Assembly: GCA_018652265.1 (NCBI GenBank)
Contig: JABICL010000030.1
Location: forward strand, 6,818 to 70,817
Source: Candidatus Peribacteria bacterium
GTDB taxonomy: Bacteria > Patescibacteriota > Gracilibacteria > Peribacterales > Peribacteraceae
Direction of reading: 5' to 3'
Length of the DNA: 64,000 nt
The notes beneath the pieces were generated by a model. It saw only the letters and a program-made list of their open reading frames with translations. It searched no databases and was not told the DNA's origin. This document shows positions 6,552 to 64,000 of this stretch, piece after piece. A program made the translations under genes and the position numbers. How positions within the stretch are numbered: the first letter of the stretch is position 1; each line of letters begins with the position of its first letter.

Positions 6552-7262
6552 CTATGGCATCACTTTTGTCCCTACCTCCTCACCTTTTACAACTTTCAAC
6601 AAATTCCCCTTTTTACCAAAATCGAAAATAATCAACTTCATTCCCTGATCACGACAAAGGCTAAGTGCTGCTTGATCCATTACCTGCAAATTCTTTTCTA
6701 TGGCATCTTGCAGAGTTATAGAATCATATTTCTTGGCATCTTTGTTCGTATTTGGATCTTTATCGTAGACTCCATCTACATTTGTAGCCTTCAGTATCAC
6801 ATCACAATTAAGCTCAAGAGCCCGAAGAGCTGCAGCTGAATCAGTAGTAAAATATGGATTTCCGGTTCCTCCAGCACATATTATTACTCTCCCCTTCTCT
6901 AGATGCCTAACTGCACGCCTCCTTAGATATGGTTCTGCAAGTTGTGGAACATCTACAGCAGAACAAACTCTAGTCATAGCACCATTTGATTCTAATGACG
7001 CCTGCAAACCTACTGCATTCATTATGGTTGCTAGCATTCCCATTGCGTCACTTGCTGTTCGTTCTATTCCAGCCTCCTTTTTGTCACGATATCTCCAAAT
7101 ATTTCCTCCGCCTATAGTTACAGCTACTTCAACGCCTTCTTTCATTACAGAAATAATCTCTTCGGAGATATTAGCAATAGCCTCATCATCCAATCCATAT
7201 TCATTGTTTCCAGAGAGAGCTTCTCCGGAAAGCTTTAGCATTATTCTTTTGTATTTAGACAT
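6552..7262 (-). CDS. pyrH: UMP kinase
   Basis: KRIMLKLSGEAL and GGGNIWRY motifs; ORF-track N-terminal 42 aa is read-through of repeat B; ATG 7262 has TGcTACAAT 7 nt upstream. Confidence 0.93.
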   Translation of the reverse strand: MSKYKRIMLKLSGEALSGNNEYGLDDEAIANISEEIISVMKEGVEVAVTIGGGNIWRYRDKKEAGIERTASDAMGMLATIMNAVGLQASLESNGAMTRVCSAVDVPQLAEPYLRRRAVRHLEKGRVIICAGGTGNPYFTTDSAAALRALELNCDVILKATNVDGVYDKDPNTNKDAKKYDSITLQDAIEKNLQVMDQAALSLCRDQGMKLIIFDFGKKGNLLKVVKGEEVGTKVMP

Positions 7263-7312
7263 TGGGGAGATTGTAGCATATATGGCTGTGCCACGTGGTA
7301 ACGCTTGAAACT

Positions 7313-7423
7313 GGTCCTTCGACTCTCCGCCTTCGGCGGATCGCTCAGGATCATTCGATTCCATTGCAAAAATAGGATGGTTTACCATGAGTGAGTATTT
7401 TGCGCAGCAAAATACGAATCGAA
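7313..7423 (-). repeat. tRNA-trailer repeat family B, copy 1
   Basis: About 110 nt directly after the CCA of tRNA-Arg; tRNA-proximal 75 nt about 90 percent identical to 21552-21626; contains hairpins GTATTTTGC/GCAAAATAC and ATGGT/ACCAT closed by CCATTCGATTC/GAATCGAATG. Confidence 0.85.
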
Positions 7424-7500
7424 TGGTACCCCGGACAGGAATCGAACCTGTGACCTAAAGCTTAGAAGGCTTCCGCTCTATCCAACTGAGCTACCGGGGC
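7424..7500 (-). tRNA. tRNA-Arg (anticodon TCT), CCA encoded
   Basis: Cloverleaf folded by hand: acceptor GCCCCGG/CCGGGGT, anticodon loop CTTCTAA, T-loop TTCGATT. Confidence 0.9.
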
Positions 7501-7582
7501 ATACCTTTAGTATTATTAATATTCCAGAGAATTATACACACCTATAGTGATCTTTCTTACTCAAATTGCTATAATTTAGCTC

Positions 7583-7993
7583 ATGGAGATTACCCCAGAA
7601 CAAAAACAGGATATAGACAAGAATAAGGACGTCGCAGCAATGGGCTATTTATGGATAATGTCCGTAGTAGTTCTGTATGCAAGAAAAGATTCTCCATTTA
7701 TTCAATATCATGCAAGACAGGGGCTTTGGCTTTTTCTAGTCAGTATTCCTGTATGGCTAATACCTGGAATTGGTAAGTATCTAGAATTTTTCATACTTGC
7801 TGGAATGATCATAGGATTTATAAATGCTGCACAAGGTAATTATCATGATATTCCGATTGTTGGACAACTTGCAAAAGGATCTCTTACGCTACACGAAATA
7901 TGGAAAAAAGTTGTAGGAGCAATTGGAAATGCATTTGGCGTTTTCAAAAAAGGCGTCAAAAAACCAGACGATAATAAAAATGTAGATAATTGA
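7583..7993 (+). CDS. Small membrane protein, DUF4870-like
   Basis: 136 aa, 3 TM, YHARQG motif typical of that family (from memory); TGcTATAAT 7 nt upstream of ATG. Confidence 0.5.
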   Translation: MEITPEQKQDIDKNKDVAAMGYLWIMSVVVLYARKDSPFIQYHARQGLWLFLVSIPVWLIPGIGKYLEFFILAGMIIGFINAAQGNYHDIPIVGQLAKGSLTLHEIWKKVVGAIGNAFGVFKKGVKKPDDNKNVDN

Positions 7994-7995
7994 AA

Positions 7996-8370
7996 CTACT
8001 TATCCAATATCCCCTTCACGCTTTCTATAATCTTCGCAAAAGGTGCGTTTGCTTTTACCATGTAATCCGTAGCACCTAAAGATTTGGCCTTCTCTATATC
8101 TTCATCTTGTCCCAAATTAGAAAGAACCATCACAGGAGTATCTGTATGGCCAGAACCTTTCAGGAACATAAGAAAGTTAAACCCATCCATTCTAGGCATA
8201 ATTACATCTAGCAAAATCAAGTCGAAACTCTCTTGCTCTATTAACTCACTAGCTTCTTTTCCATCTTCAGAAATAGAAACTTGATACCCCTCCGACTCCA
8301 GCTTTATCTGTAAAGCATGAGAAAGCGCTTTTTCATCCTCAACTACTAATATGTGTTTTTTATCACTCAT
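7996..8370 (-). CDS. Stand-alone response-regulator receiver domain (CheY-like)
   Basis: 124 aa; VVEDE, LLDVIMPRMDG, ..KA.. receiver signatures; TATAAT 7 nt upstream of ATG. Confidence 0.9.
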   Translation of the reverse strand: MSDKKHILVVEDEKALSHALQIKLESEGYQVSISEDGKEASELIEQESFDLILLDVIMPRMDGFNFLMFLKGSGHTDTPVMVLSNLGQDEDIEKAKSLGATDYMVKANAPFAKIIESVKGILDK

Positions 8371-8412
8371 ACCAAGTATTATACCATTTTTAGACCTTAA
8401 TAAAAAGATGTT

Positions 8413-8886
8413 CTAGTGAACGAATTCCTCTGTCTCATCAGAATTTAATACCCTTACCCTACCTCCGGTATAAGGATACTGAATTTTATAACCCGTAAAG
8501 TAACTATGATTTTCGTATGCACGCTCTACAGGAACGCTCACTATATATCCTCCGGTTACAATTTCATCAATAAATAATACTCCGCCCTGCGCAGTACAAT
8601 CGCCTTCAGAAACAGTTGCCTTACACACTGGGGTAACATTTACAGTTTTGCCCTCATCAAATGGCACATCTCCACCATTGTCCCATCTATAATTAGATAT
8701 CGACTCAGAAACAGCACGAACTCCAACTTCTCCCTCTGTAGAAATTAATTTTGCAAAAATATCTGCGATATCTATTTTGGAAGAAATTAATATAAACAAA
8801 GATGCGAGGATAGCGAGCCCAAGAACTATTTCTATCATAGTTCCACCACATTTTTCCCTATTTTTTCTAAAAATATAATTCATCAT
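8413..8886 (-). CDS. Type IV pilin-like protein
   Basis: N-terminal G/GTMIEIVLGLAILA prepilin-like segment with Glu at +5; C-terminal Cys pair and ..TGYKI.. region resembling the C-terminus of the upstream pilin; start overlaps upstream stop. Confidence 0.55.
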   Translation of the reverse strand: MMNYIFRKNREKCGGTMIEIVLGLAILASLFILISSKIDIADIFAKLISTEGEVGVRAVSESISNYRWDNGGDVPFDEGKTVNVTPVCKATVSEGDCTAQGGVLFIDEIVTGGYIVSVPVERAYENHSYFTGYKIQYPYTGGRVRVLNSDETEEFVH

Positions 8887-10598
8887 TCATAGAGTACACA
8901 CGTCCTTTCATCATTTACAAGATCCCATACCAGACAATTTGCAATGCCTATAGTGCCAATAATTTCTATCTCCTGATCAAGCTCTGCAAGTGGAGCGCGG
9001 AGATATAGCTTATTTGTACCAAAATCATGTCTAACTTCATAACCGGTAAGAACAGTTCCAGTGCTTGTATCTGCATCTTGCATAGGATCCGCAGGAATTT
9101 CTGCAAGATATCCAGGAACCAGCACATCTAGAGATACTCCACCATACGCATCACACTCCACAACAGAAACTCCATATCGACATACTGGCTCATATTCTTC
9201 TTCTATGGCTCCAAGTGGCGCAGGTTCAGAAGTTCCTATATTTTTTGTGTTCATCCACCATGTAATGGTGTCTGCATTTCTATTTGCAGCAACTATATCT
9301 AGAGCACTATCTTTGTTTACATCGATAGCAGCAATTTCGTGCACTCCATTTGCATCTGACCCAGCTGCAAAAACATAAGTACCAGAAAACGTTCCTCCTC
9401 CTTCGTTTTCCCAGTAAGCAATCTTATCTCCACCATCAGATGCAGCCACAACGTCTAAATCATTATCGAAATCGACGTCAGCAACTATTATCTCCTCTCC
9501 ACCAAAGTTATTTGCTATCTGATGCGATGTCCATCCACTTTGTTTTGGATTGCCATCATTTTCATACCATTCAACTTTTCCAGAAAGAGAAATTCCAACC
9601 ACATCTATATCGTTATCGTCATCTATGTCACCAAAAGTAACTCCCCTTTCTCCTGATTCACCATTATCTATGGTGTAACTGTCCCAGAATCCACTCCAAC
9701 AATTGTTTTCCGGAGTTCCATCATTTTCCCACCAGTACACATATTCTGAACTAAATAATCTCCAACCATTTGCTCCAATAATATCTTTATCTCCATCATC
9801 ATCTAAATCTACTATTTTAATATCGCTCATAGAACCGAACAGACTCAATGCAACACAATTCTCATCCCAATTGTCACCTTCTGGAGAACCATCATTTTCG
9901 TACCATCTAATTGGAACAAATAAAGAGAAATCGGATGCGACAACTACATCATTTCCATTTTCTCCGTCTATGTTTTCAATGGCTACAGAATTAATATTTT
10001 TAAAATTACTCTCTATGGTAGTACGAGAATCAAAACTCGGAGGACTTCCTCCAAGATTTTTCCACCAAGCAATGTCTTTCTTGTTTGCATCTAAAGAAAC
10101 AATATCGTTCAATAGATCACCATTCATATCTCCAACGGCAATGTCGTAACCTCGGAAGTTGCCGGTCTCTATATCGCTTTTTGTCCACGTAAAATATGGA
10201 CCAGTCCCACTCTGCTTCCACCAAGCCACCTCTTTGTCGTTACCTTGAGATGCTCCACCAACAACGTCTATATTATTATCTCCATCCAAATCCACTGGAA
10301 ATATCGATCTTGCAGAATTCATATTGTCCTGAATTATGTAAGCACCCGAGAAATCTACAACTCCTTCTATTTGTGGAATAATTATTTCTACCGGAGTCTG
10401 CCCATCATTATCTATAGTAAAAGCTGTAATTGCACCCAATAAATCATTGAGCATGACCCTTCTTTCACCGTTTCTGGCATTTCCAAGCATGACCCCCGGA
10501 TTAACCTGAGAAATAACCACAGCAGACATAACACCCATTATCCCTAAAGTTAAAGTTACCTCTAGTAAAGAAAAAGCTGATTTGTGAGAATTTAACAT
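8883..10598 (-). CDS. Type IV pilin-like protein carrying an FG-GAP/VCBS-type beta-propeller
   Basis: 571 aa; N-terminal KSA/FSLLEVTLTLGIMGV prepilin-like helix; seven Asp-rich repeats (VDLDGDNNIDVV, GDMNGDLLNDIV, ENIDGENGNDVV, VDLDDDGDKDII, GDIDDDNDIDVV, ADVDFDNDLDVV, AIDVNKDSALDIV). Confidence 0.7.
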   Translation of the reverse strand: MLNSHKSAFSLLEVTLTLGIMGVMSAVVISQVNPGVMLGNARNGERRVMLNDLLGAITAFTIDNDGQTPVEIIIPQIEGVVDFSGAYIIQDNMNSARSIFPVDLDGDNNIDVVGGASQGNDKEVAWWKQSGTGPYFTWTKSDIETGNFRGYDIAVGDMNGDLLNDIVSLDANKKDIAWWKNLGGSPPSFDSRTTIESNFKNINSVAIENIDGENGNDVVVASDFSLFVPIRWYENDGSPEGDNWDENCVALSLFGSMSDIKIVDLDDDGDKDIIGANGWRLFSSEYVYWWENDGTPENNCWSGFWDSYTIDNGESGERGVTFGDIDDDNDIDVVGISLSGKVEWYENDGNPKQSGWTSHQIANNFGGEEIIVADVDFDNDLDVVAASDGGDKIAYWENEGGGTFSGTYVFAAGSDANGVHEIAAIDVNKDSALDIVAANRNADTITWWMNTKNIGTSEPAPLGAIEEEYEPVCRYGVSVVECDAYGGVSLDVLVPGYLAEIPADPMQDADTSTGTVLTGYEVRHDFGTNKLYLRAPLAELDQEIEIIGTIGIANCLVWDLVNDERTCVLYE

Positions 10599-55845: not shown

Positions 55846-56502
55846 ATGTCTCAAATCACACTAGAAATCACACCACGAACCAAAGAAAAGAAAGTAAAAG
55901 ATCTTAGGGAGCAAGGCACTGTGCCATGCGTCTTATATGGACATGAAATAGAAAATCAACAAATAGAATGTGATGAACAAGAATTTCACAAGACTTTTGT
56001 ACGCGCAGGAGAAAGTACAATCATAGATTTAGACATGGGAGGGAAAAAGACATCTGTTCTTATACACAAAATAGATCGAGATCCAGTAACAGACAGATGT
56101 ATACACATAGATTTCTTTGCTCCAAATATGAAAAAAGAGATAACTACACACATTTCTATAGTTGCAAACGGAGAAGTTCCTGCAGTAAAAGAGCTTGGCG
56201 GAGTACTCGTAACTCATAGAGATTCCATAGAAGTAAGATGTCTTCCAAAAGATCTTCCACATGAAATAGTGGTTGATCTATCTAAACTTGCAGAAATTGG
56301 TGATTCAATCTCCGTATCAGACTTAAGCTTAGGAGAGAATGTTGCAGCTCAACTCGAAGATGATGAAATAATCTTTGCAGTAGAAGCCCCTAGAAAAGAA
56401 GAGGTTGTCGAGAAACCAGCAGAAGGCGAAGAAGGAGAAGCTACAGAGGAAGGAGAAAAGAAAGAAGGAGAAGCTGCAGAAGAAGGAGAAAAGAAAGAGT
56501 AA
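55846..56502 (+). CDS. rplY: 50S ribosomal protein L25 (Ctc form) with acidic repeat tail
   Basis: ..LREQGTVPCVLYG.. N-terminal L25 domain, second beta domain, EGEKKEGEAAEEGEKKE tail. Confidence 0.88.
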   Translation: MSQITLEITPRTKEKKVKDLREQGTVPCVLYGHEIENQQIECDEQEFHKTFVRAGESTIIDLDMGGKKTSVLIHKIDRDPVTDRCIHIDFFAPNMKKEITTHISIVANGEVPAVKELGGVLVTHRDSIEVRCLPKDLPHEIVVDLSKLAEIGDSISVSDLSLGENVAAQLEDDEIIFAVEAPRKEEVVEKPAEGEEGEATEEGEKKEGEAAEEGEKKE

Positions 56503-56513
56503 CCTTAACTCAA

Positions 56514-57572
56514 ATGCAGATTAAATCTAAAATCCCTTGGCTGGTTGCGTGTGTAGCGTGCGCTGCATATATGTTTTTTGTGCCATACGTCCCACACATA
56601 CCTAAAGCACCTAAGATCCCTGCAATTAGCACAGCACTTCCTACTACAGATGCTTTACTAATAAGCTCCTCTAGTCACATCTCTCCACAGATAATTTCAT
56701 ATCTTCCACTTGTTCCATCATCTTCTGGAAAGAAAAAATCTGTGCAATTAGTTGCTTCCATGATAGAAAACCACATGGAGTCGCGTCCTCAGAAAGGATT
56801 AAAAGATGCAATCATAGTTTTTGAGCTCATAGTAGAAGGTGATATATCTAGATTCTTGGCAATTTTTAGAGCCGATAGATTACCAAAAATTATAGAGCCT
56901 ATCAGATCACTTAGACCTCATTTTGTAAGTGTCGTTGCTCCATTTAGACCTCTCATGCTCCATGCGGGAGGAAGTGCAATCGCATATGAGGCTCTTGGAA
57001 GAAATCCTCAGATCCAAAACCACGATGCTATTAGATACGATGGTGAAACTTACGAAAGAGATCCAAAAAAAGATGCTCCTCACAATCTTATGATCACTCG
57101 TAAGGCAATCGAATCTGTTATAGAGAAAAAGAATCTACTAGATTTTGATCTTCCTGTATTCCCAACAACATATGATTTCGTATCTCCGAAGGATTATGAA
57201 GTCGCCAAGAAGATTAATTTAAGTTTTGGAAGTCCAAATCACAACGTAACTTACACATACAGTCCATTACGAGGATCCTCTTATGTACGCTCTATAAAAG
57301 GCGCAGATAAACAAGCAAGACCAAAGAATGTATTAGTTTTGGAAACTCACATAGAAGGATTTGGAGAGCCAAACACAATTCCTTGGACCAAAACATTTGG
57401 GAATGGAAAGCTCTTACTTTTCTCTAAAGGAAAAGTGTGGAGAGGAACATGGGAACGAGAAAAAGGCCAAGTCTTCAGGTTCTATGATGATTCTGGAAAT
57501 GTATTACCACTTGAAAGCGGACAGATATGGATAACTATGGTTCCAGATCTTGGTAGAGCTAGCTGGGAATAA
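56514..57572 (+). CDS. DUF3048 domain protein
   Basis: N-terminal anchor; MIENHMESRPQKGL..IVFELIVEGDISRFLAIF pattern. Confidence 0.7.
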   Translation: MQIKSKIPWLVACVACAAYMFFVPYVPHIPKAPKIPAISTALPTTDALLISSSSHISPQIISYLPLVPSSSGKKKSVQLVASMIENHMESRPQKGLKDAIIVFELIVEGDISRFLAIFRADRLPKIIEPIRSLRPHFVSVVAPFRPLMLHAGGSAIAYEALGRNPQIQNHDAIRYDGETYERDPKKDAPHNLMITRKAIESVIEKKNLLDFDLPVFPTTYDFVSPKDYEVAKKINLSFGSPNHNVTYTYSPLRGSSYVRSIKGADKQARPKNVLVLETHIEGFGEPNTIPWTKTFGNGKLLLFSKGKVWRGTWEREKGQVFRFYDDSGNVLPLESGQIWITMVPDLGRASWE

Positions 57573-58314
57573 GCTTGCTCACAACCTCTTCTACCAGCTT
57601 CTTCATAAGCCCATTTATTTCTGCAATCTCGGATTCCTTGGCTTTTAGTGTCCCCTCTTCTGTATAGAGTCCATGATTTACCTCTATCTGAATTCCAGGA
57701 ACCAGGAAGTGAGGGATTCGCTTTCTGTGACAGTGTCTGCCTAAAATATATCTACCACTATATGGATCATTTATAGATACGCTATAACCGTGACGCTCAA
57801 AGAAATCACGGAAAAATACTGTGTGCTCGCGAGTGCATGAGGTCCAATTCACATTTCCTAGATTTATATCTTTACGAGGCTTGCCTTCATCTGGCTTTCC
57901 TGGAGGGCCTACTGGAGTATAGCTATGGCAATCGATTAAAAATCTTGCATCTGCCATATAGGCATCTATCTCTGCATGAAAAGGATCATGATATTTCTTT
58001 ATAAGACTTTCAAATTGTTTTTCTGTTGGTTCAATTTTGTATATCTGCTCTCCATTCCAAGTTTTATGAACCATCACACCATCTTTACCTCCTTCGTATT
58101 CTTTACTTATATCATCAGGTGCTCGATTAACATCCAAAAGCACGCGAGAGACACCTTCACTCTTTACAGTATAGGCATCAGGGATTTTATATATACGATC
58201 TGTATATAGATCAGAATAAGGGAACAGCTCTTCTTCCGAGAGAAGTACATTCTCTTTCAGTTCTTCTGGGATACTGAACGAATAGTGCGGTAATGACAGA
58301 ATTATTGGATGCAC
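57559..58314 (-). CDS. N-formylglutamate amidohydrolase family protein
   Basis: LSLPHYS.., LLDVNRAPDD, LIDCHSY, DINLGN pattern; GTG start. Confidence 0.65.
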   Translation of the reverse strand: MHPIILSLPHYSFSIPEELKENVLLSEEELFPYSDLYTDRIYKIPDAYTVKSEGVSRVLLDVNRAPDDISKEYEGGKDGVMVHKTWNGEQIYKIEPTEKQFESLIKKYHDPFHAEIDAYMADARFLIDCHSYTPVGPPGKPDEGKPRKDINLGNVNWTSCTREHTVFFRDFFERHGYSVSINDPYSGRYILGRHCHRKRIPHFLVPGIQIEVNHGLYTEEGTLKAKESEIAEINGLMKKLVEEVVSKLIPS

Positions 58315-58378: not shown

Positions 58379-59215
58379 TTACTTGGATATTTTGAATTTG
58401 TTTTCGAATAATTTTTTGGCAGGTATTACAACTGTGCTATCACCACTTTTTATAACAACACCTGTAATCAAGAATTTTACGATTTCCCCCTTAATGTCAC
58501 ATTCACAATCTATATGATCTCCTATTTTCAAATGTGATTTAAGCTGCATACATGTAATAGCATTTTCCAAAAATGGCTTAGCAGCGAGTGCGCCTGCAAA
58601 ACTGATAGCAATAAATAGTATTGCGAGTATTCGTGCTGCATTCATAGTAATTACAGATACATCGAAACCTATTTGCTGCAATGCAATCAGACAAACAAAT
58701 ATTACTATAACCACCTGTACTACGGCACCAAGCAATTCAGCATATGAAATTCCTGCCTTAGCACAAAAAGTAGAAACAACGTCCCGTAAAAACCTTCCAA
58801 GAATTAAACCTATTACAAGTATAAATAGTCCGACTATAAGATGTGGAATATATGAAACTATTGCACCTATCGCATCAGACACAGCTCCAAGCTGGAGAAT
58901 ATCTGTTATAAGAAGTAGTGCAGCTAAAATTATTAACCAATAGATCAAAAAACAAAAAATACTAGATACACTTCTCTTTATTCCTACCATTCTTAGCATT
59001 CTGTCTACATTTACCTTGTTTGCAATTTTATCTAGACCCAAAACATCAAAAATATGCTTCACAAGTTTGCATGCAATACGTGCAACTATAATGCTCACAA
59101 TGAGCACCAAGAGTGCAAGTATTATTTGCGGAACCACTTCTACAATTTTGTCTGATGTTTGAGATAAAAGTTCAGAAGTTGTTTCTGAGAGCTGCTTTTT
59201 CATAGCGGAAAACAT
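58379..59215 (-). CDS. Membrane protein with conserved-TM-helix repeats (MscS-associated type)
   Basis: 278 aa; repeated TM helix + ..LGLDK../..AGISYA.. loops; TGcTATAAT 7 nt upstream of ATG. Confidence 0.5.
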   Translation of the reverse strand: MFSAMKKQLSETTSELLSQTSDKIVEVVPQIILALLVLIVSIIVARIACKLVKHIFDVLGLDKIANKVNVDRMLRMVGIKRSVSSIFCFLIYWLIILAALLLITDILQLGAVSDAIGAIVSYIPHLIVGLFILVIGLILGRFLRDVVSTFCAKAGISYAELLGAVVQVVIVIFVCLIALQQIGFDVSVITMNAARILAILFIAISFAGALAAKPFLENAITCMQLKSHLKIGDHIDCECDIKGEIVKFLITGVVIKSGDSTVVIPAKKLFENKFKISK

Positions 59216-59268
59216 ATTGTCTATTATAGCACATGGAGCAGTTTTTGTTTACCTACGATATATTTAGA

Positions 59269-59303
59269 AGTGGCTAGTGGGCAGTGGGCAGCGGATAGCA
59301 AAC
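59269..59303. repeat. Heptad block AGTGGNN x3-4 (+1)
   Basis: agtggct agtgggc agtgggc agcggat agcaaac, directly abutting repeat C copy 4. Confidence 0.8.
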
Positions 59304-59487: not shown

Positions 59488-59628
59488 ATGTGTGGCGACG
59501 AAAACCCAACACCAGAAGCAGAAGTAAAAGAAGGCGGTTGCTGTAAAGAAGGAGAATGTGCAGCTCCTGATGCAGCTCCTGCAACAGAAGAAGCAACTCC
59601 AGAAGCAACAGATGCTCCTGCTGCTTAA
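59488..59628 (+). CDS. Small acidic Cys-containing protein (46 aa) MCGDENPTPEAEVKEGGCCKEGECAAPDAAPATEEATPEATDAPAA
   Basis: Below the ORF-track size cutoff; genome-typical codons; followed by a strong plus-strand terminator; no -10 box or SD at canonical distance. Confidence 0.35.
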   Translation: MCGDENPTPEAEVKEGGCCKEGECAAPDAAPATEEATPEATDAPAA

Positions 59629-59656: not shown

Positions 59657-59687
59657 CGCGATACCCTAGGTATCGCGTTTTGTTTTT
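59657..59687 (+). terminator. Intrinsic terminator after the small ORF
   Basis: CGCGATACC-cta-GGTATCGCG + TTTTGTTTTT; no other plus-strand gene upstream, which implies a plus-strand transcript here. Confidence 0.7.
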
Positions 59688-62029
59688 GGTAAATAAATTG
59701 GATCTATAATCCCCTGTGTTTTCTCTATCAAATCTAAATCTTTCAAATTGATACGACCAATATACAAATCTTTCATATCTCCACCATTCTCTAGATACTC
59801 AGTTACATCTTTTAATCCACGGAAATAGATTAAATTTCTGGTGAATACTCCAGGCACAACAGTGTCTCCCATTCCTCGCTTAACTTTGAAACAAGTTCTA
59901 AGTGCCAAAACATCATCAAAACCTAATCTTCTTATATAAGATCTAAGTTCAGCAAATGAATGTTTGGATCCATAATTTATAGCCAGAATATTCATAGCAG
60001 GCCAAAATCTTTTTTCATGATTTTCTGGAAGAACTGCATTTTGATTATATATAGCAAGACCTTCCTGAGTATCTAAATAATCTGCCATACCACGCCTAAA
60101 GATTTGATAAGCCTGCTTCTCGCCATTTACAGCACAAAGAACGTGAGTTTCTATCTCATGCGCTATCAAACTATCTACCCTTTCTTTGGAAAATTCACTA
60201 CCTGCACGAATCATCACTTTCTTTCCTCCTACTGCACAATCAGAAACTGATGTAGATTTAATTTCTGCGCTCCATTCATTTAATCCATAACTCGTAAGTA
60301 TGTCCGAAAAAATATCTTTTACTTTTTCTGCTGAAAGCATTTCTTTTTTATTTGCATCTTTCTTGTCTTTTTTTCTAGATTGCAAAATCCCTCTCGCCTC
60401 TTTTACAAGCGATTGAATTGGAGAACCATAAAGAGCAATTGATGCAGTCTGAAAAGCAGAATTATCACCACGAACTTTAAGTAATTTAATTTTATTTATT
60501 ATTTCTTCTTTTTTCTTATCTAAAATTATGCCAAATGCAGAATCATCTGATTCCAGATACGAGAGCCTATCCATAAGCTCATTGGAATCGAAGTCTAACT
60601 CGGAATATTTAAATACAGGATTGTAATCTTTGTCTTCTTCTGCTTTTACCCTTTCTTCTTCTAGATTTTCTGGACGAATGTATTTAAGTAGTTGAACTTT
60701 CCTATCTATATCTGCAAGTTGCTTGTCTAATCTTTTCAAATCAACTGTTGTTTTTATACCTTCACTCTCTACGTTCTTACCAGGATCTACCAAGAAATTC
60801 TTTAGATCTCTCTTTCCAAGTGAGGCATGCACTCCTTCTTCCTCTATAGGAAGAGGAAAAACAACTGTTTGTAATTTTTTACCACCCAAAACAAACTTTA
60901 CCTTTATATTTCCATCAGAAGTTCTCTCGATTGCACCTAGCTGATCTAACTCATCTATAAGAGAAGGATCAAATACTGTTCTATCATGATCTGGTCTAAG
61001 TATTGCAGGAACAACCATAGATTTTTTTCCTCCTATTATTTCTATATCTTCTCTGGTTCCTAGAACTGGTTTTTCTTCTTTTGCTTCCGGTTCTTTTGCA
61101 GAAACTTTTTCACCAAATAAATCTTGAGCAATTCTTACACCTTTTTCTGGAGAACTTACGCTTAGTCCTTCTACGCGATCTAGCCTTTTTCCAAGTGGCG
61201 CTAGGTTTGCTAGCTGCACCCTAAGTCCTGCACGAGCATTTACCTCTAGAAGAATCGGCCCACTATCTTTATCTATCGTCATATCTACACCCAAGAAACC
61301 AATGTTTGTTATCTGCTGTATACGGGAAGATATAAGTAGCATCTCTTCCCAATAAGGAATCTTGAAATTCAAGATAGCTTTTCCATCTGGCAAAGTATCT
61401 ATTCTTTTAGTTCCTTGCACTGCAAAAGTTGTAGAGCCTTTTGCTATATCTATACCAAGTCCTATGCCACCAATGTGCAAGTTGGCCTTCCCTTCACTTT
61501 CTGCAGTAGGAAGTCTCATCATAGCCATCACAGGAACTAGGTTATGAACAATAATTCTGAGATCTGGAAGTCCTGCAGGTTTTACAGAATCAAAACAACT
61601 ATGCGAAATTATAGTTTGCTCAAAGAAAGCAACATCCTTTCTATGATTTAAAGAATACATTCCATCAAGAATATCTTCACAGTGTCTGAATATTTCTTCG
61701 TAACTTATATGTTTTCCTCCAGCAGTTTTCCATCCTCCATGTTCTTTTTTACTTAGGACTATTATTCCCTCTCCACCATAACCAAAATTAGGTTTAAGCA
61801 CACATGAATCAGGTAGTGACGAAAAATCAAAACTTCTTATATCTTCTCTAGAGCTAAGTTTAGCGTACAGCCTAGGCACAGGAACGCCTCTAGCTTCTAG
61901 GAAAGCTTTTGTTTTCAGCTTGTCATCTGCAAATGCAACTGCCTTTCTGGGATTGAAAGGTTTCAGGTATTTTAGGTTACGTGCATTTATACCAAGTATG
62001 CCGTGATTTTTTGGAAGAAAGAAAAACAT
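59666..62029 (-). CDS. Fusion: ATP-grasp alpha-L-glutamate-ligase-like domain + DUF1704 (QEGLA-motif, HExxH) domain
   Basis: N-terminal GILGINARNLKYL..DDKLKTKAFLE..KPNFGYGGEGI (ATP-grasp amidoligase type); C-terminal HEIETHVL ... TQEGLAIYNQ. Confidence 0.75.
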   Translation of the reverse strand: MFFFLPKNHGILGINARNLKYLKPFNPRKAVAFADDKLKTKAFLEARGVPVPRLYAKLSSREDIRSFDFSSLPDSCVLKPNFGYGGEGIIVLSKKEHGGWKTAGGKHISYEEIFRHCEDILDGMYSLNHRKDVAFFEQTIISHSCFDSVKPAGLPDLRIIVHNLVPVMAMMRLPTAESEGKANLHIGGIGLGIDIAKGSTTFAVQGTKRIDTLPDGKAILNFKIPYWEEMLLISSRIQQITNIGFLGVDMTIDKDSGPILLEVNARAGLRVQLANLAPLGKRLDRVEGLSVSSPEKGVRIAQDLFGEKVSAKEPEAKEEKPVLGTREDIEIIGGKKSMVVPAILRPDHDRTVFDPSLIDELDQLGAIERTSDGNIKVKFVLGGKKLQTVVFPLPIEEEGVHASLGKRDLKNFLVDPGKNVESEGIKTTVDLKRLDKQLADIDRKVQLLKYIRPENLEEERVKAEEDKDYNPVFKYSELDFDSNELMDRLSYLESDDSAFGIILDKKKEEIINKIKLLKVRGDNSAFQTASIALYGSPIQSLVKEARGILQSRKKDKKDANKKEMLSAEKVKDIFSDILTSYGLNEWSAEIKSTSVSDCAVGGKKVMIRAGSEFSKERVDSLIAHEIETHVLCAVNGEKQAYQIFRRGMADYLDTQEGLAIYNQNAVLPENHEKRFWPAMNILAINYGSKHSFAELRSYIRRLGFDDVLALRTCFKVKRGMGDTVVPGVFTRNLIYFRGLKDVTEYLENGGDMKDLYIGRINLKDLDLIEKTQGIIDPIYLPKTKRDT

Positions 62030-62171
62030 AACACTATACGGCTTCGCCGTTTTAAAAAATACTTATTAATTTTATTTATATCATCAAAATTGATCTCCGA
62101 TCCCGCTACGCCGCTATTATTCTCAATATTATTCATACACATTAATCATGTTTTAAATGCAAACTCACACC

Positions 62172-63734
62172 TCACTCCTCCATGTATCTAAATATTTCCT
62201 TGAATCTCAAGGTTTCACTTAGGCGAAGCCCTGTCCATTTACCTAGGAAGATGTTTACAACAATCGTAAGAAATACAGTTTCTGGATAAGCAATTATAAG
62301 AGATTTCAGAACCGCCCACTGCACTATTACAAAACATACTAGTGCAACAATAACCGTCTCTCCTACTGCCATAAGAGCGTTTCTAAGTCCCATCTCTGCT
62401 TTTACGCTCATAAACTCTTCAGAAAGAGTGGCCATTATAAGAAGTATAAAAATAGTATCTGGAGCCAATGTAATTCCAAAAGAAGCAGCAACCGCAAGTA
62501 CCACTAGAAGCACAAGACTAATAACCGTAAGAATAGTTGCGATCTTTGGAAAATAAAGAAGTCTATACCTCTTCATAAATGCACGAGTTAGATATCCCGC
62601 AAAAAGAATCACAGCAAGAAGCACAAGTCCTATCTCCCATCCAAGTGCAACAAGAGATAATGTAATTACAGCAGGCGTATACAAACCAAATGTAGTCACT
62701 CCTACCACTTGTTTCAGGAAAGTAATAATCGTAAGAATAAGAGGAAGCATAAGTAGAAGAATTATCATCTCGCTACTTACTCCTTTTGTAACCATATAAT
62801 TTACTAGAGTAGAAAGAATATTCCATGGCCTTATGGCAAAAGTTGCTTCGTCTACTATAGAGAAATCTATATCTCTTTTTTCTATCTCAGAAACAAACTC
62901 ATGCACATCCCCTACTTCTATAAGAGGATTTATCGCTTCTTTTCTGGTTATAACTATCTTCTCTGGATCGAGCACAGAGAAAGGCCCCTGAATTACACGC
63001 GAAAGCTGTTGAAGCCCTCCATCGGTTATTAGAACTATTGTTTGTGATCCTATTAGAGAAAGTGTTTCTTCATCTTGCTGCAAAGCTCTAGACAATGCGT
63101 TCATCGCAGTCGCTCCATCTGCCCAGAGAATAATTGCTTCAGCTCCTAGAAATCTATCTGTATTCTCTGCAATCATTTTCGTCATTACATCTTCGGTTCC
63201 AAGCGGAATCGTAAGCGCTTCGGCATGCATTATGTCTACCAATACTCCTTTTTCCTCTCCATTTGATTGATGCAGTGCTAGCTTTTCTTTCTCTACATTT
63301 GGTCCAGCAACTAAAATCAACTTCCTCTTATATACAGTTATATCCTGAGTAACTTCTGCCTCTCTTTTTGTATTGTTTAATAAATCACTAACCTGAAGAG
63401 TAATTTTATATTTACCAGGCTCATTTAATGTAAGTAGTGCTTCTTCGGATGTACTTATAGCCTGTCCATCTCTTAACCACTTATACGATACTGTATCTGG
63501 ATCTGCCGTAGAGTGAGATGCATCTAGAAGAATCTTCTTTCCTTGGCTTACATTCGATGGTCCTGTGATTACTGCTCTAAGTTCACGTGGGGCATCGGAT
63601 ACTTCCGGAACTTGGGCCAGTGCTATATACGGGACAAGTAAAATAGTGACAAGTGACAAGTGACAAGTGACAAGTAACTTTCTGCCCACTGCCCACTGCC
63701 CACTGCCCACTCGTCCAAATTTCAAATAAATCAT
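62172..63734 (-). CDS. PKD domain + unknown alpha/beta domain + 7TM domain of the kind usually fused to an inactive transglutaminase
   Basis: PKD-like (YKWLRDG..GKYKITLQVSD); C-terminal seven helices beginning LKQVVGVTTFGLYTPAV and ending GKWTGLRLSETLRF; N-terminal signal region encoded by heptad blocks. Confidence 0.6.
   Translation of the reverse strand: MIYLKFGRVGSGQWAVGRKLLVTCHLSLVTILLVPYIALAQVPEVSDAPRELRAVITGPSNVSQGKKILLDASHSTADPDTVSYKWLRDGQAISTSEEALLTLNEPGKYKITLQVSDLLNNTKREAEVTQDITVYKRKLILVAGPNVEKEKLALHQSNGEEKGVLVDIMHAEALTIPLGTEDVMTKMIAENTDRFLGAEAIILWADGATAMNALSRALQQDEETLSLIGSQTIVLITDGGLQQLSRVIQGPFSVLDPEKIVITRKEAINPLIEVGDVHEFVSEIEKRDIDFSIVDEATFAIRPWNILSTLVNYMVTKGVSSEMIILLLMLPLILTIITFLKQVVGVTTFGLYTPAVITLSLVALGWEIGLVLLAVILFAGYLTRAFMKRYRLLYFPKIATILTVISLVLLVVLAVAASFGITLAPDTIFILLIMATLSEEFMSVKAEMGLRNALMAVGETVIVALVCFVIVQWAVLKSLIIAYPETVFLTIVVNIFLGKWTGLRLSETLRFKEIFRYMEE
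63645..63710. repeat. Convergent pair of heptad blocks: AGTGACA x4 (plus sense) and AGTGGGC x4 (minus sense)
   Basis: agtgaca x4 at 63645-63672; tgcccac x4 at 63683-63710; together encode GSGQWAVGRKLLVTCHLSLVT. Confidence 0.9.
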
Positions 63735-63759
63735 AAATATTAGAATTACGAATTAAATA

Positions 63760-64000
63760 TTAAGCATGTTGCGCCTTATACTTTTCAATCTGAGATTCCA
63801 ACTTCTCACAACACCTATCTATTGCACTCAGTGCATCTTTTTTTCTAGATTCTGCTCGCAGAGTTTTCCTTGGAAAAGTAACTGTAATCATAACCTTCAC
63901 ACTATCTTTCTCTTTTTTAGTATTTCTAGAAACTGTTTCCACATGTACTACAGAACTCTCATCTTTAATCTTATTGCAATACCTTGTAAGTCTGCCTACC
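63760..64000 (-). CDS. hpf: Ribosome hibernation promoting factor / RaiA family (5-prime end beyond the window)
   Basis: Frame open to the window edge; ..VKVMITVTFPRKTLRAESRKKDALSAIDRCCEKLESQIEKYK.. matches HPF/YfiA C-terminal pattern. Confidence 0.75.
   Translation of the reverse strand, partial: VGRLTRYCNKIKDESSVVHVETVSRNTKKEKDSVKVMITVTFPRKTLRAESRKKDALSAIDRCCEKLESQIEKYKAQHA

Follow-up and report, generated by a model that had tools for sequence, protein, structure and literature searches.

In a 64,000-nucleotide stretch of contig JABICL010000030.1 from a Candidatus Peribacteria bacterium (the whole stretch is hereafter called the window), we analysed a cassette of two genes, one encoding a membrane protein with seven transmembrane helices (7TM) and the other a 787-aa enzyme that fuses an ATP-grasp ligase domain, a degenerate retropepsin-like domain and a MATCAP-type metallocarboxypeptidase domain. 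We tentatively read this cassette as a two-gene variant of the Rim/Rlo systems, belonging to the Candidate Phyla Radiation (CPR), that would reversibly glutamylate the cytoplasmic tail of its own membrane partner, which ends in Glu-Glu (-EE). Such a variant packs all the activities in two genes and indicates a specific candidate substrate, the -EE tail of the partner.

Open reading frame (ORF) calling placed three co-oriented genes on the minus strand between positions 59666 and 64000 of the window: hpf, truncated at the edge of the window, an ORF of 520 aa (PKD/7TM) and the fusion ORF of 787 aa, with gaps of 25 nt (hpf/7TM) and 142 nt (7TM/fusion) (Table 1). The 787-aa protein is deposited identically at NCBI as 'DUF1704 domain-containing protein [Candidatus Peribacteria bacterium]'. 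Pfam searches detected PF14397 (ATPgrasp_ST) at aa 17-287 (E 1.9e-62, 211.5 bits against a cut-off of 31.4) and the best NCBIfam match was TIGR02291, 'alpha-L-glutamate ligase-like' (E 3e-79, 266 bits, under the equivalog cut-off of 314); the RimK family model TIGR00768 gave 51.3 bits, below its subfamily cut-off of 143.4. The conserved residues of this ligase domain are K79, E137, D249, E262, N264 and R266. Towards the C-terminus, PF08014 (MATCAP, formerly DUF1704) matched at aa 466-782 (E 1.2e-43, 149.9 bits against a cut-off of 27), and TIGR02421 (QEGLA) did so with 170 bits (E 9e-50), below its equivalog cut-off of 338.65. A profile built from 19 fusions matched only MATCAP structures (7z5g/7z6s) in the PDB, and the alignment of the fusion to these paired HEIETH with HEIGTH and TQEGLA with TEEGLA, the inactive cryo-EM construct reading HQIGTH. 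The roles of these motifs were taken from the MATCAP/TMCP enzymes, carboxypeptidases of the HExxxH type with trimming and deglutamylating activity on acidic tubulin tails (PMC10499314). At least 79 of 86 fusions, with identities as low as ~30%, retained the six ligase residues, H624/E625/H629 and (Q/E)655-E656-G657, indicating that both enzyme domains are under selection; in alignment A1 the three metal-motif residues and the 655-657 motif were invariant. Both catalytic signatures are intact and activity is predicted from them. The fusion protein carries no signal peptide and was taken as cytoplasmic.

The domain between the two enzymes (aa 318-428) is conserved, yet it gave no sequence matches in Pfam (E <= 10) or in the PDB. 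The idea that it could be a retropepsin began with a resemblance to the RimB-like consensus; this consensus served only to retrieve real RloA sequences from the PDB, and the idea was then tested in four ways. With hhalign, the middle-domain profile could be aligned over its whole length to three PDB sequences of the RloA family (P 3e-4). Its AlphaFold2 (AF2) model reached a pLDDT of 93.5 and, when searched against the PDB with Foldseek, returned aspartic-protease folds (retropepsin or pepsin) in 50 of the top 50 matches, the best of them (TMq 0.64) being Pseudomonas aeruginosa RloA2 (9g59) and Legionella Lpg0085 (2pma), with RloA also among the best. ATP-grasp relatives carry PF05618 (RimB-like), above the gathering score, at the equivalent position, and P0300 and the L102 protein contain all three domains together in this PF05618-bearing form. 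Alignments showed that the PF05618-bearing relatives retain D-T/S-G-A (DTGA) and that the window family has a variable stretch (RPDHDR / APERER) in place of D-T/S-G, lacks a ~45-aa insert and keeps the C-terminal IGRRDLxxFLxDP motif. Given the fold, the PF05618 of the relatives and the lost D-T/S-G, we read the middle domain as an inactivated RimB/RloA-like domain. Its inactivation in the MATCAP-carrying forms is an apparent replacement of one peptidase by another. Two further proteins, one with only the ATP-grasp and middle domains (P0305) and one with only the middle and MATCAP domains (P0288), were uninformative because their contigs measure only 1.4-1.5 kb.

The 520-aa partner consists of a signal/anchor segment, a PKD domain, an alpha/beta domain, seven transmembrane helices and a cytoplasmic tail ending in -YMEE. 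Its membrane part belongs to PF14402, and the NCBIfam RloB model matched the C-terminal part only (E 1.3e-12). The alpha/beta domain, modelled by AF2 with a pLDDT of 83.6 and alternating strands and helices, sits where RloB carries an inactive transglutaminase. This domain had no Pfam match even at E <= 10, no transglutaminase domain was detected in the 520-aa protein, and Foldseek comparison of the ectodomain with the PDB retrieved generic alpha/beta folds only (TMq <= 0.47), with no transglutaminase and no specific function among them. The ectodomain is optional, since distant relatives are bare 7TM proteins of 215-250 aa and those of Proteobacteria carry the inactive transglutaminase. Most of the original prediction, made from the window sequence, was borne out by these analyses: it had described three co-oriented minus-strand genes with short gaps, an ATP-grasp domain of the 7TM-pairing clade, a DUF1704 domain with the MATCAP fold and a 7TM partner with a PKD and another domain in place of the transglutaminase, and PF14397, PF08014 and PF14402 all scored above their cut-offs. 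Its view of writer and eraser in one polypeptide fits the two predicted activities. Its metal motif, HExxH, has to be corrected to HExxxH (H624-E625-x3-H629), as in MATCAP. It overlooked the retropepsin-like middle domain, the -EE end of the partner, the connection to N-formylglutamate amidohydrolase-like (FGase) genes and the characterised relative rloABC.

The end of the partner is the feature that points to a substrate. The window protein ends in ...RFKEIFRYMEE, and among its database homologues 120 of 120 end in Glu and 116 of 120 in Glu-Glu. The fetched loci contained 77 complete partner ORFs, of which 69 end in EE and have two to four Glu residues there. The ending recurs across lineages in which the fusion shares 34-88% identity with the query, the residues before it are variable (YMEE, HLQEE, HIEE, TGEEE, GAEE), and it is written with all four GAA/GAG codon combinations and followed by all three stop codons. 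When partners were clustered at 70% identity, 24 of 30 clusters were wholly EE, and the 7TM gene is the only one of the 67 ORFs in the window with this ending. Bare PF14402 7TM proteins carried EE in just 13 of 62 cases, many ending in Lys or Arg, and the Legionella and Aeromonas RloB homologues end in ...KARS and ...GKDK, without EE, indicating that EE is not a generic PF14402 trait. The EE-tailed bare 7TM genes of loci L101 and L102 share their operons with a MATCAP gene or domain; the basic-tailed bare 7TM genes of L103 and L104 are accompanied by one or two extra ATP-grasp genes and by no MATCAP. Pooled counts of EE versus MATCAP were 70/8 versus 1/4 (Fisher p = 0.0012, a statistic that ignores phylogeny). 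We predict that the terminal Glu-Glu is an acceptor or recognition site. Two bare 7TM homologues (P0401, P0402) end in ...QEEK or ...QEEQ, one residue beyond EE, which recalls the -EEY of tubulin trimmed by MATCAP. In L064 (4-3771) the fusion itself ends in ...YLMEE.

To follow the gene neighbourhood across relatives, 104 loci were fetched overall, an alignment-based metagenome scan having yielded 80 loci, and counts were made with genetic code 11. Of the 67 loci whose sequence reached far enough upstream, 63 had a PF14402 gene as the immediate, co-oriented upstream neighbour of the fusion, usually 0-20 nt away, and the bare 7TM-only forms were paired in this manner as well. The conserved unit is the pair of 7TM and fusion genes. 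In contrast, hpf was present upstream in 21 of 61 loci with room for it, and all 21 belong to one lineage with DUF3048 and L25 genes downstream on the other strand. The original prediction had started the operon with hpf and linked the system to the ribosome; since hpf is confined to one syntenic lineage, this link is lineage synteny and not a property of the system, so that of the three genes the 7TM and fusion genes held together across relatives and hpf did not. hpf is a bystander, a lineage-specific upstream neighbour. Other lineages have QueA, PP2C, STAS, CysRS and MurJ on the opposite-strand flanks, as read from neighbour sequences, with Pfam confirmation of SpoIIE, STAS and MurJ only for the related locus L085, and in other CPR relatives the cassette sits inside a ruvC/ruvAB cluster.

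Several of these loci showed arrangements of their own. L085 (613-1692) carries a stand-alone 359-aa MATCAP gene in SpoIIE/STAS/MurJ synteny shared with the lineage-B fusions, with no ATP-grasp in the 612 nt upstream, where the contig ends; loss of the ligase part or a contig-end effect are both possible. In L101-L104, a cassette of a bare 7TM protein and an ATP-grasp-RimB-like enzyme follows yebC/TACO1 and ruvC; in L101 it is followed by ruvA/ruvB, in L104 ruvB is found upstream, and in L101 a GNAT gene separates the ligase from a short MATCAP gene. L090 and L091 encode a distant 814-aa fusion, in which R266 of the ATP-grasp domain is replaced by Q, and a bare 231-aa 7TM protein ending in ...TPPNH, directly downstream of rplK-rplA-rplJ-rplL. 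L088 and L089 are the sole loci truly on genetic code 25; there (7001-9448 and flanks) the fusion contains 27 TGA codons in frame, and convergent separate genes for RimK (288 aa) and MATCAP (482 aa; HEIETH, REEGLA) adjoin the fusion gene. Applying code 25 to all loci was rejected, as it merged genes across real TGA stops.

The association between ATP-grasp and 7TM genes was reportedly defined by Iyer et al. in 2009; it is already known, as are rloABC and the database annotation of the fusion. Within the literature searched, the three-domain reading, the retropepsin inactivation in MATCAP-carrying forms, the -EE terminus and its link with MATCAP and the triad of N-formylglutamate amidohydrolase-like (FGase) family, MATCAP and ATP-grasp proteins appear to be new. 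The RloABC system of P. aeruginosa and P. fluorescens (PMC12239564) resembles the window system in its ATP-grasp clade (TIGR02291 / PF14397), in the adjacency of the ligase gene to a PF14402 7TM gene, in the inclusion of a RimB/RloA-like retropepsin-fold module and in contextual hints of a hypo-osmotic link; a canonical rloABC copy was also found on a Legionella adelaidensis plasmid. The window system differs in having two genes instead of three, in the added MATCAP domain and in the retropepsin module, which in RloA is secreted and active and here is fused inside a cytoplasmic enzyme, without D-T/S-G and without a signal peptide. The ectodomain of RloB is an inactive transglutaminase, whereas that of the window 7TM protein combines PKD and alpha/beta domains, and the window protein ends in -EE, unlike the RloB homologues that were checked. 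RimK/RimB (with RimA) likewise join an ATP-grasp alpha-L-glutamate ligase to a cytoplasmic retropepsin-like partner and have a Glu-Glu-ended acceptor, with ligase and trimming peptidase acting on one tail, as we propose here; however, the fusion matches the RimK subfamily model weakly, its partner is a membrane protein and not the ribosome, and trimming has probably moved from the retropepsin to the MATCAP domain. The eukaryotic MATCAP1/TMCP1 and TMCP2 share PF08014 and HExxxH plus the (E/Q)EG third ligand with the window domain. Together with TTL/TTLL ligases they form a tubulin cycle that, like the proposed system, sets a peptidase against an ATP-grasp ligase on acidic C-terminal tails, in a writer/eraser logic. 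The window system is bacterial and has writer and eraser in one chain, without a tubulin or microtubule-binding region; its ligase is RimK/RloC-like and not of the TTL family, and its candidate substrate is the 7TM protein. MATCAP-type peptidases are already coupled to ATP-grasp ligases in bacteria, fused or neighbouring, which bears on the origin of the enzymes that modify tubulin tails. The proteobacterial pairs described below, the code-25 CPR pair and L064 indicate that the coupling of ligase and MATCAP is general in bacteria, with FGase as a recurrent, optional third member.

In the mechanism that we propose, the first gene would supply a membrane protein with a variable outside domain, seven transmembrane helices and a cytoplasmic tail with -Glu-Glu-COOH, and the second a cytoplasmic three-domain enzyme. 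The RloC/RimK-like ATP-grasp domain would use ATP to activate the terminal alpha-carboxylate of the -EE tail and add amino acids, most likely L-Glu, and the MATCAP-like Zn carboxypeptidase domain (HExxxH plus Glu) would take the added residues off again. The dead RimB-like retropepsin domain between the enzymes may hold the acidic tail and/or dimerise the enzyme. The balance of ligase and peptidase would set tail length and so tune the function of the 7TM protein, for which the context suggests a role in envelope or osmotic homeostasis. Bifunctional enzymes with opposing activities can set a steady-state level of modification, so that joining a ligase to a carboxypeptidase does not have to result in futile turnover. 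We infer the tail as substrate, Glu as the added residue and the physiological role from the precedents of RimK/RimB on S6, RloA on poly-Glu and MATCAP/TMCP on acidic tails. Specifically, RimK requires the -EE end of S6. It adds Glu to the RpsF C-terminus and RimB removes Glu, and RloA, which has a positively charged substrate channel, cleaves poly-Glu (PMC12239564).

Several points weigh against a reversibly glutamylated tail. The covariation of EE and MATCAP rests on few independent MATCAP-less operons. Eight of the 77 partners lack EE (L063, L069, L077, L090, L091, L097, L035 and L068) although their fusions retain every catalytic residue, and in four loci (L047, L056, L088 and L089) the fusion has no adjacent 7TM gene. 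The tail model is not transferable to rloABC, since there is no EE on the classical RloB, and the -EE end may serve for docking instead of being an acceptor. The cytoplasmic location of the tail is deduced from an N-out ectodomain, a crude hydropathy count of seven helices and the Pfam definition. The Pseudomonas peptidase acts on the periplasmic side, a sign that the product is exported (PMC12239564).

A more ambitious form of the tail proposal, which we regard as doubtful, describes a 'tail code' in which a membrane protein with a fixed -Glu-Glu end would be reversibly polyglutamylated by a fusion of writer, dead-retropepsin reader-holder and eraser, as a prokaryotic antecedent of the tubulin TTL/TTLL-MATCAP cycle. 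If true, it would provide the first concrete substrate for Rlo-type 7TM/ATP-grasp systems, and the relatives ending in ...QEEK/...QEEQ would resemble tubulin -EEY in that one residue would come off before ligation.

The alternative that survives best, though we consider it unlikely, is closer to Rlo: the ATP-grasp domain would make free poly-alpha-glutamate or a short acidic peptide at the membrane, the 7TM protein would anchor the enzyme, prime synthesis or export the product, MATCAP would set its length or recycle it, and the -EE end and the dead retropepsin would only dock. RimK is reported to make poly-alpha-Glu from free Glu, and some fusions without an EE-tailed or adjacent 7TM protein retain their catalytic residues, in keeping with a free product. 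Protease-less P. aeruginosa cells, which die under hypo-osmotic conditions, are rescued when rloB or rloC is lost, which suggests a RloB/RloC product that needs removal by the periplasmic RloA enzymes (PMC12239564). The MscS-like channel gene next to the cassette and the low-salinity induction seen in Photobacterium (PMC10308900) would also fit osmolyte handling. On the other hand, both peptidase-type domains reside in an enzyme without a signal peptide, which places degradation on the side of synthesis, and docking alone leaves the exact free-terminus EE and its association with MATCAP unexplained.

The remaining readings, based on small molecules and on the ribosome, were ranked below this one. 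In the former, which is improbable, an ATP-grasp/MATCAP/FGase trio would make and break a Glu-containing di- or tripeptide, either glutathione-like or an osmolyte. It draws on the canonical FGase substrate, a small N-acyl-glutamate, and on an FGase-family gene two genes downstream of the fusion in the window. It also draws on MATCAP homologues of proteobacterial megaplasmids, which occur as FGase-MATCAP fusions in Vibrio and Photobacterium and follow an FGase gene in Aminobacter; those of Aminobacter, Sinorhizobium and Photobacterium adjoin a GshB-type ATP-grasp gene, the two being a few bases apart or overlapping by a few. At low salinity, Photobacterium damselae induced the genes annotated as GshB (RS17020) and QEGLA (RS17025) 38-fold and 27-fold (PMC10308900). 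The Vibrio (L092) and Pseudoalteromonas (L094) loci had no annotated ATP-grasp neighbour. In L064 the fusion precedes genes for a RimK-like ATP-grasp protein (290 aa) and then an FGase (264 aa), and stop codons overlap start codons there. What the proteobacterial loci share with the window is the genetic linkage of a MATCAP-family peptidase with an ATP-grasp ligase and a hydrolase of the FGase family; they differ in that FGase, not the ligase, is the fusion partner of the peptidase, in their GshB-type ligase and in having no 7TM partner. The window ligase belongs to the RloC/RimK-like clade and not to GshB, the retropepsin-fold domain and the MATCAP precedents indicate polypeptide tails, just 5 of the 84 loci fetched first (L001-L084) have FGase close to the fusion, and a small molecule would leave the 7TM pairing and the EE terminus unexplained. 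Modification of HPF or of a ribosomal protein tail in the style of RimK/S6, co-regulated with hibernation, is highly improbable: the co-oriented hpf 25 nt upstream in the window lineage, the distant locus L090 right after rplKAJL, the long acidic tail of the nearby L25 and the RimK precedent speak for it, but hpf is restricted to a single syntenic clade, other lineages have different flanking genes or the ruvCAB setting, the C-terminus of HPF (...KAQHA) is not acidic, the universal partner is a membrane protein, and chance adjacency is expected in CPR genomes, which are housekeeping-dense.

Table 1. Features of the cassette and its neighbours, with positions in the window
Feature	Position	Strand	Evidence or detail
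hpf, ribosome hibernation factor, 3' part only	63760..64000	-	PF02482 (S30AE domain) E 2e-10, 41.6 bits against a cut-off of 23.7; TIGR00741
7TM partner gene, 520 aa	62172..63734	-	ORF calling, Pfam, NCBIfam
Tandem heptanucleotide repeats, (GACAAGT)x6 and next to it (CTGCCCA)x4.3, within the signal-peptide-coding 5' end of the 7TM gene	63633..63711	-	Tandem Repeats Finder (TRF)
PKD/Ig-like extracytoplasmic domain, aa 54-134	63333..63575	-	PF18911 E 1.4e-6, above gathering score
Extracytoplasmic alpha/beta three-layer (flavodoxin/Rossmann-like) domain, aa 135-320	62775..63332	-	AF2 model
7TM_transglut membrane domain, aa 323-514	62193..62768	-	PF14402 E 2.9e-25, 89.6 bits against a cut-off of 25
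Conserved tail, predicted cytoplasmic, GKWTGLRLSETLRFKEIFRYMEE	62175..62243	-	Terminal Glu-Glu at 62175-62180
Three-domain enzyme (fusion) gene, 787 aa	59666..62029	-	ORF calling, Pfam, NCBIfam
RloC-like ATP-grasp amidoligase domain, aa 7-308	61106..62011	-	PF14397, TIGR02291
Degenerate RimB/RloA-like retropepsin-fold domain, aa 318-428	60746..61078	-	AF2, Foldseek, hhalign, PF05618 of relatives
MATCAP/DUF1704 metallocarboxypeptidase domain, aa 435-782	59684..60727	-	PF08014
HExxxH motif (HEIETH; H624, E625, H629)	60143-60160	-	MATCAP alignment
Q655-E656-G657 (TQEGLA)	60059-60067	-	MATCAP alignment
Terminator-like hairpin overlapping the fusion stop codon; stem of 9 bp, 6 of them GC	59657..59677	-	
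MscS-like mechanosensitive channel gene, next co-oriented gene	58379..59215	-	PF05552
FGase-family (N-formylglutamate amidohydrolase-like) gene, co-oriented, two genes downstream of the fusion	57559..58314	-	PF05013 E 1.4e-42

The surroundings of the cassette were also inspected. According to the gene table of the source contig (L001), the full-length hpf product has 102 aa, and an ECF sigma factor gene lies upstream of hpf. A promoter scan of the locus found 10 sites against 19 expected from shuffled sequence, which speaks neither for nor against internal promoters. The MscS-like gene has its own strong, extended -10 promoter-like site (10/12) at 59223-59251, and this site together with the hairpin at the fusion stop codon indicates that the transcription unit probably ends with the fusion. 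The MscS-like neighbour was found in L001, L002, L005 and L006 only and was discarded as a core part, being confined to the closest relatives. The window FGase-family gene, whose product scores far under the HutG equivalog cut-off in NCBIfam, is a possible accessory third hydrolase. Its 3' end overlaps that of a convergent DUF3048 gene by 14 nt (57559-57572).

The heptanucleotide arrays at the start of the 7TM gene add ~15 residues to the signal-peptide region in comparison with homologues, and an inverted partial copy, (AGTGGGC)x2.3, is located at 59269-59301, upstream of the MscS-like gene, so that heptads flank the 4.4-kb cassette. Since 7 is not a multiple of 3, a change in heptad copy number would shift the reading frame, and the arrays are a possible on/off phase-variation switch operating by slipped-strand mispairing. 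The repeats occurred only in the same-strain contigs L001 and L002 and were absent from the relative with 88% identity; their interpretation as ends of a mobile element was rejected because they are present in a single strain only.

A 46-aa Cys-rich acidic ORF (MCGDE...GGCCKEGEC...PAA) at 59488-59628 on the plus strand is convergent with the fusion gene, and its product is possibly a small metal-binding peptide. A homologue, MCGDEPKKDEGCCEGEGC...PAA, occupies the same position in L005 (tblastn 4e-5) and none was present in more distant loci; being found only in the closest relatives, the ORF was rejected as a core part. Finally, the L25/Ctc ribosomal protein encoded at 55846-56502 (plus strand) has a long Glu/Lys-rich C-terminal extension ending in ...EEGEKKE, and its synteny with the cassette is kept in the hpf-containing lineage.

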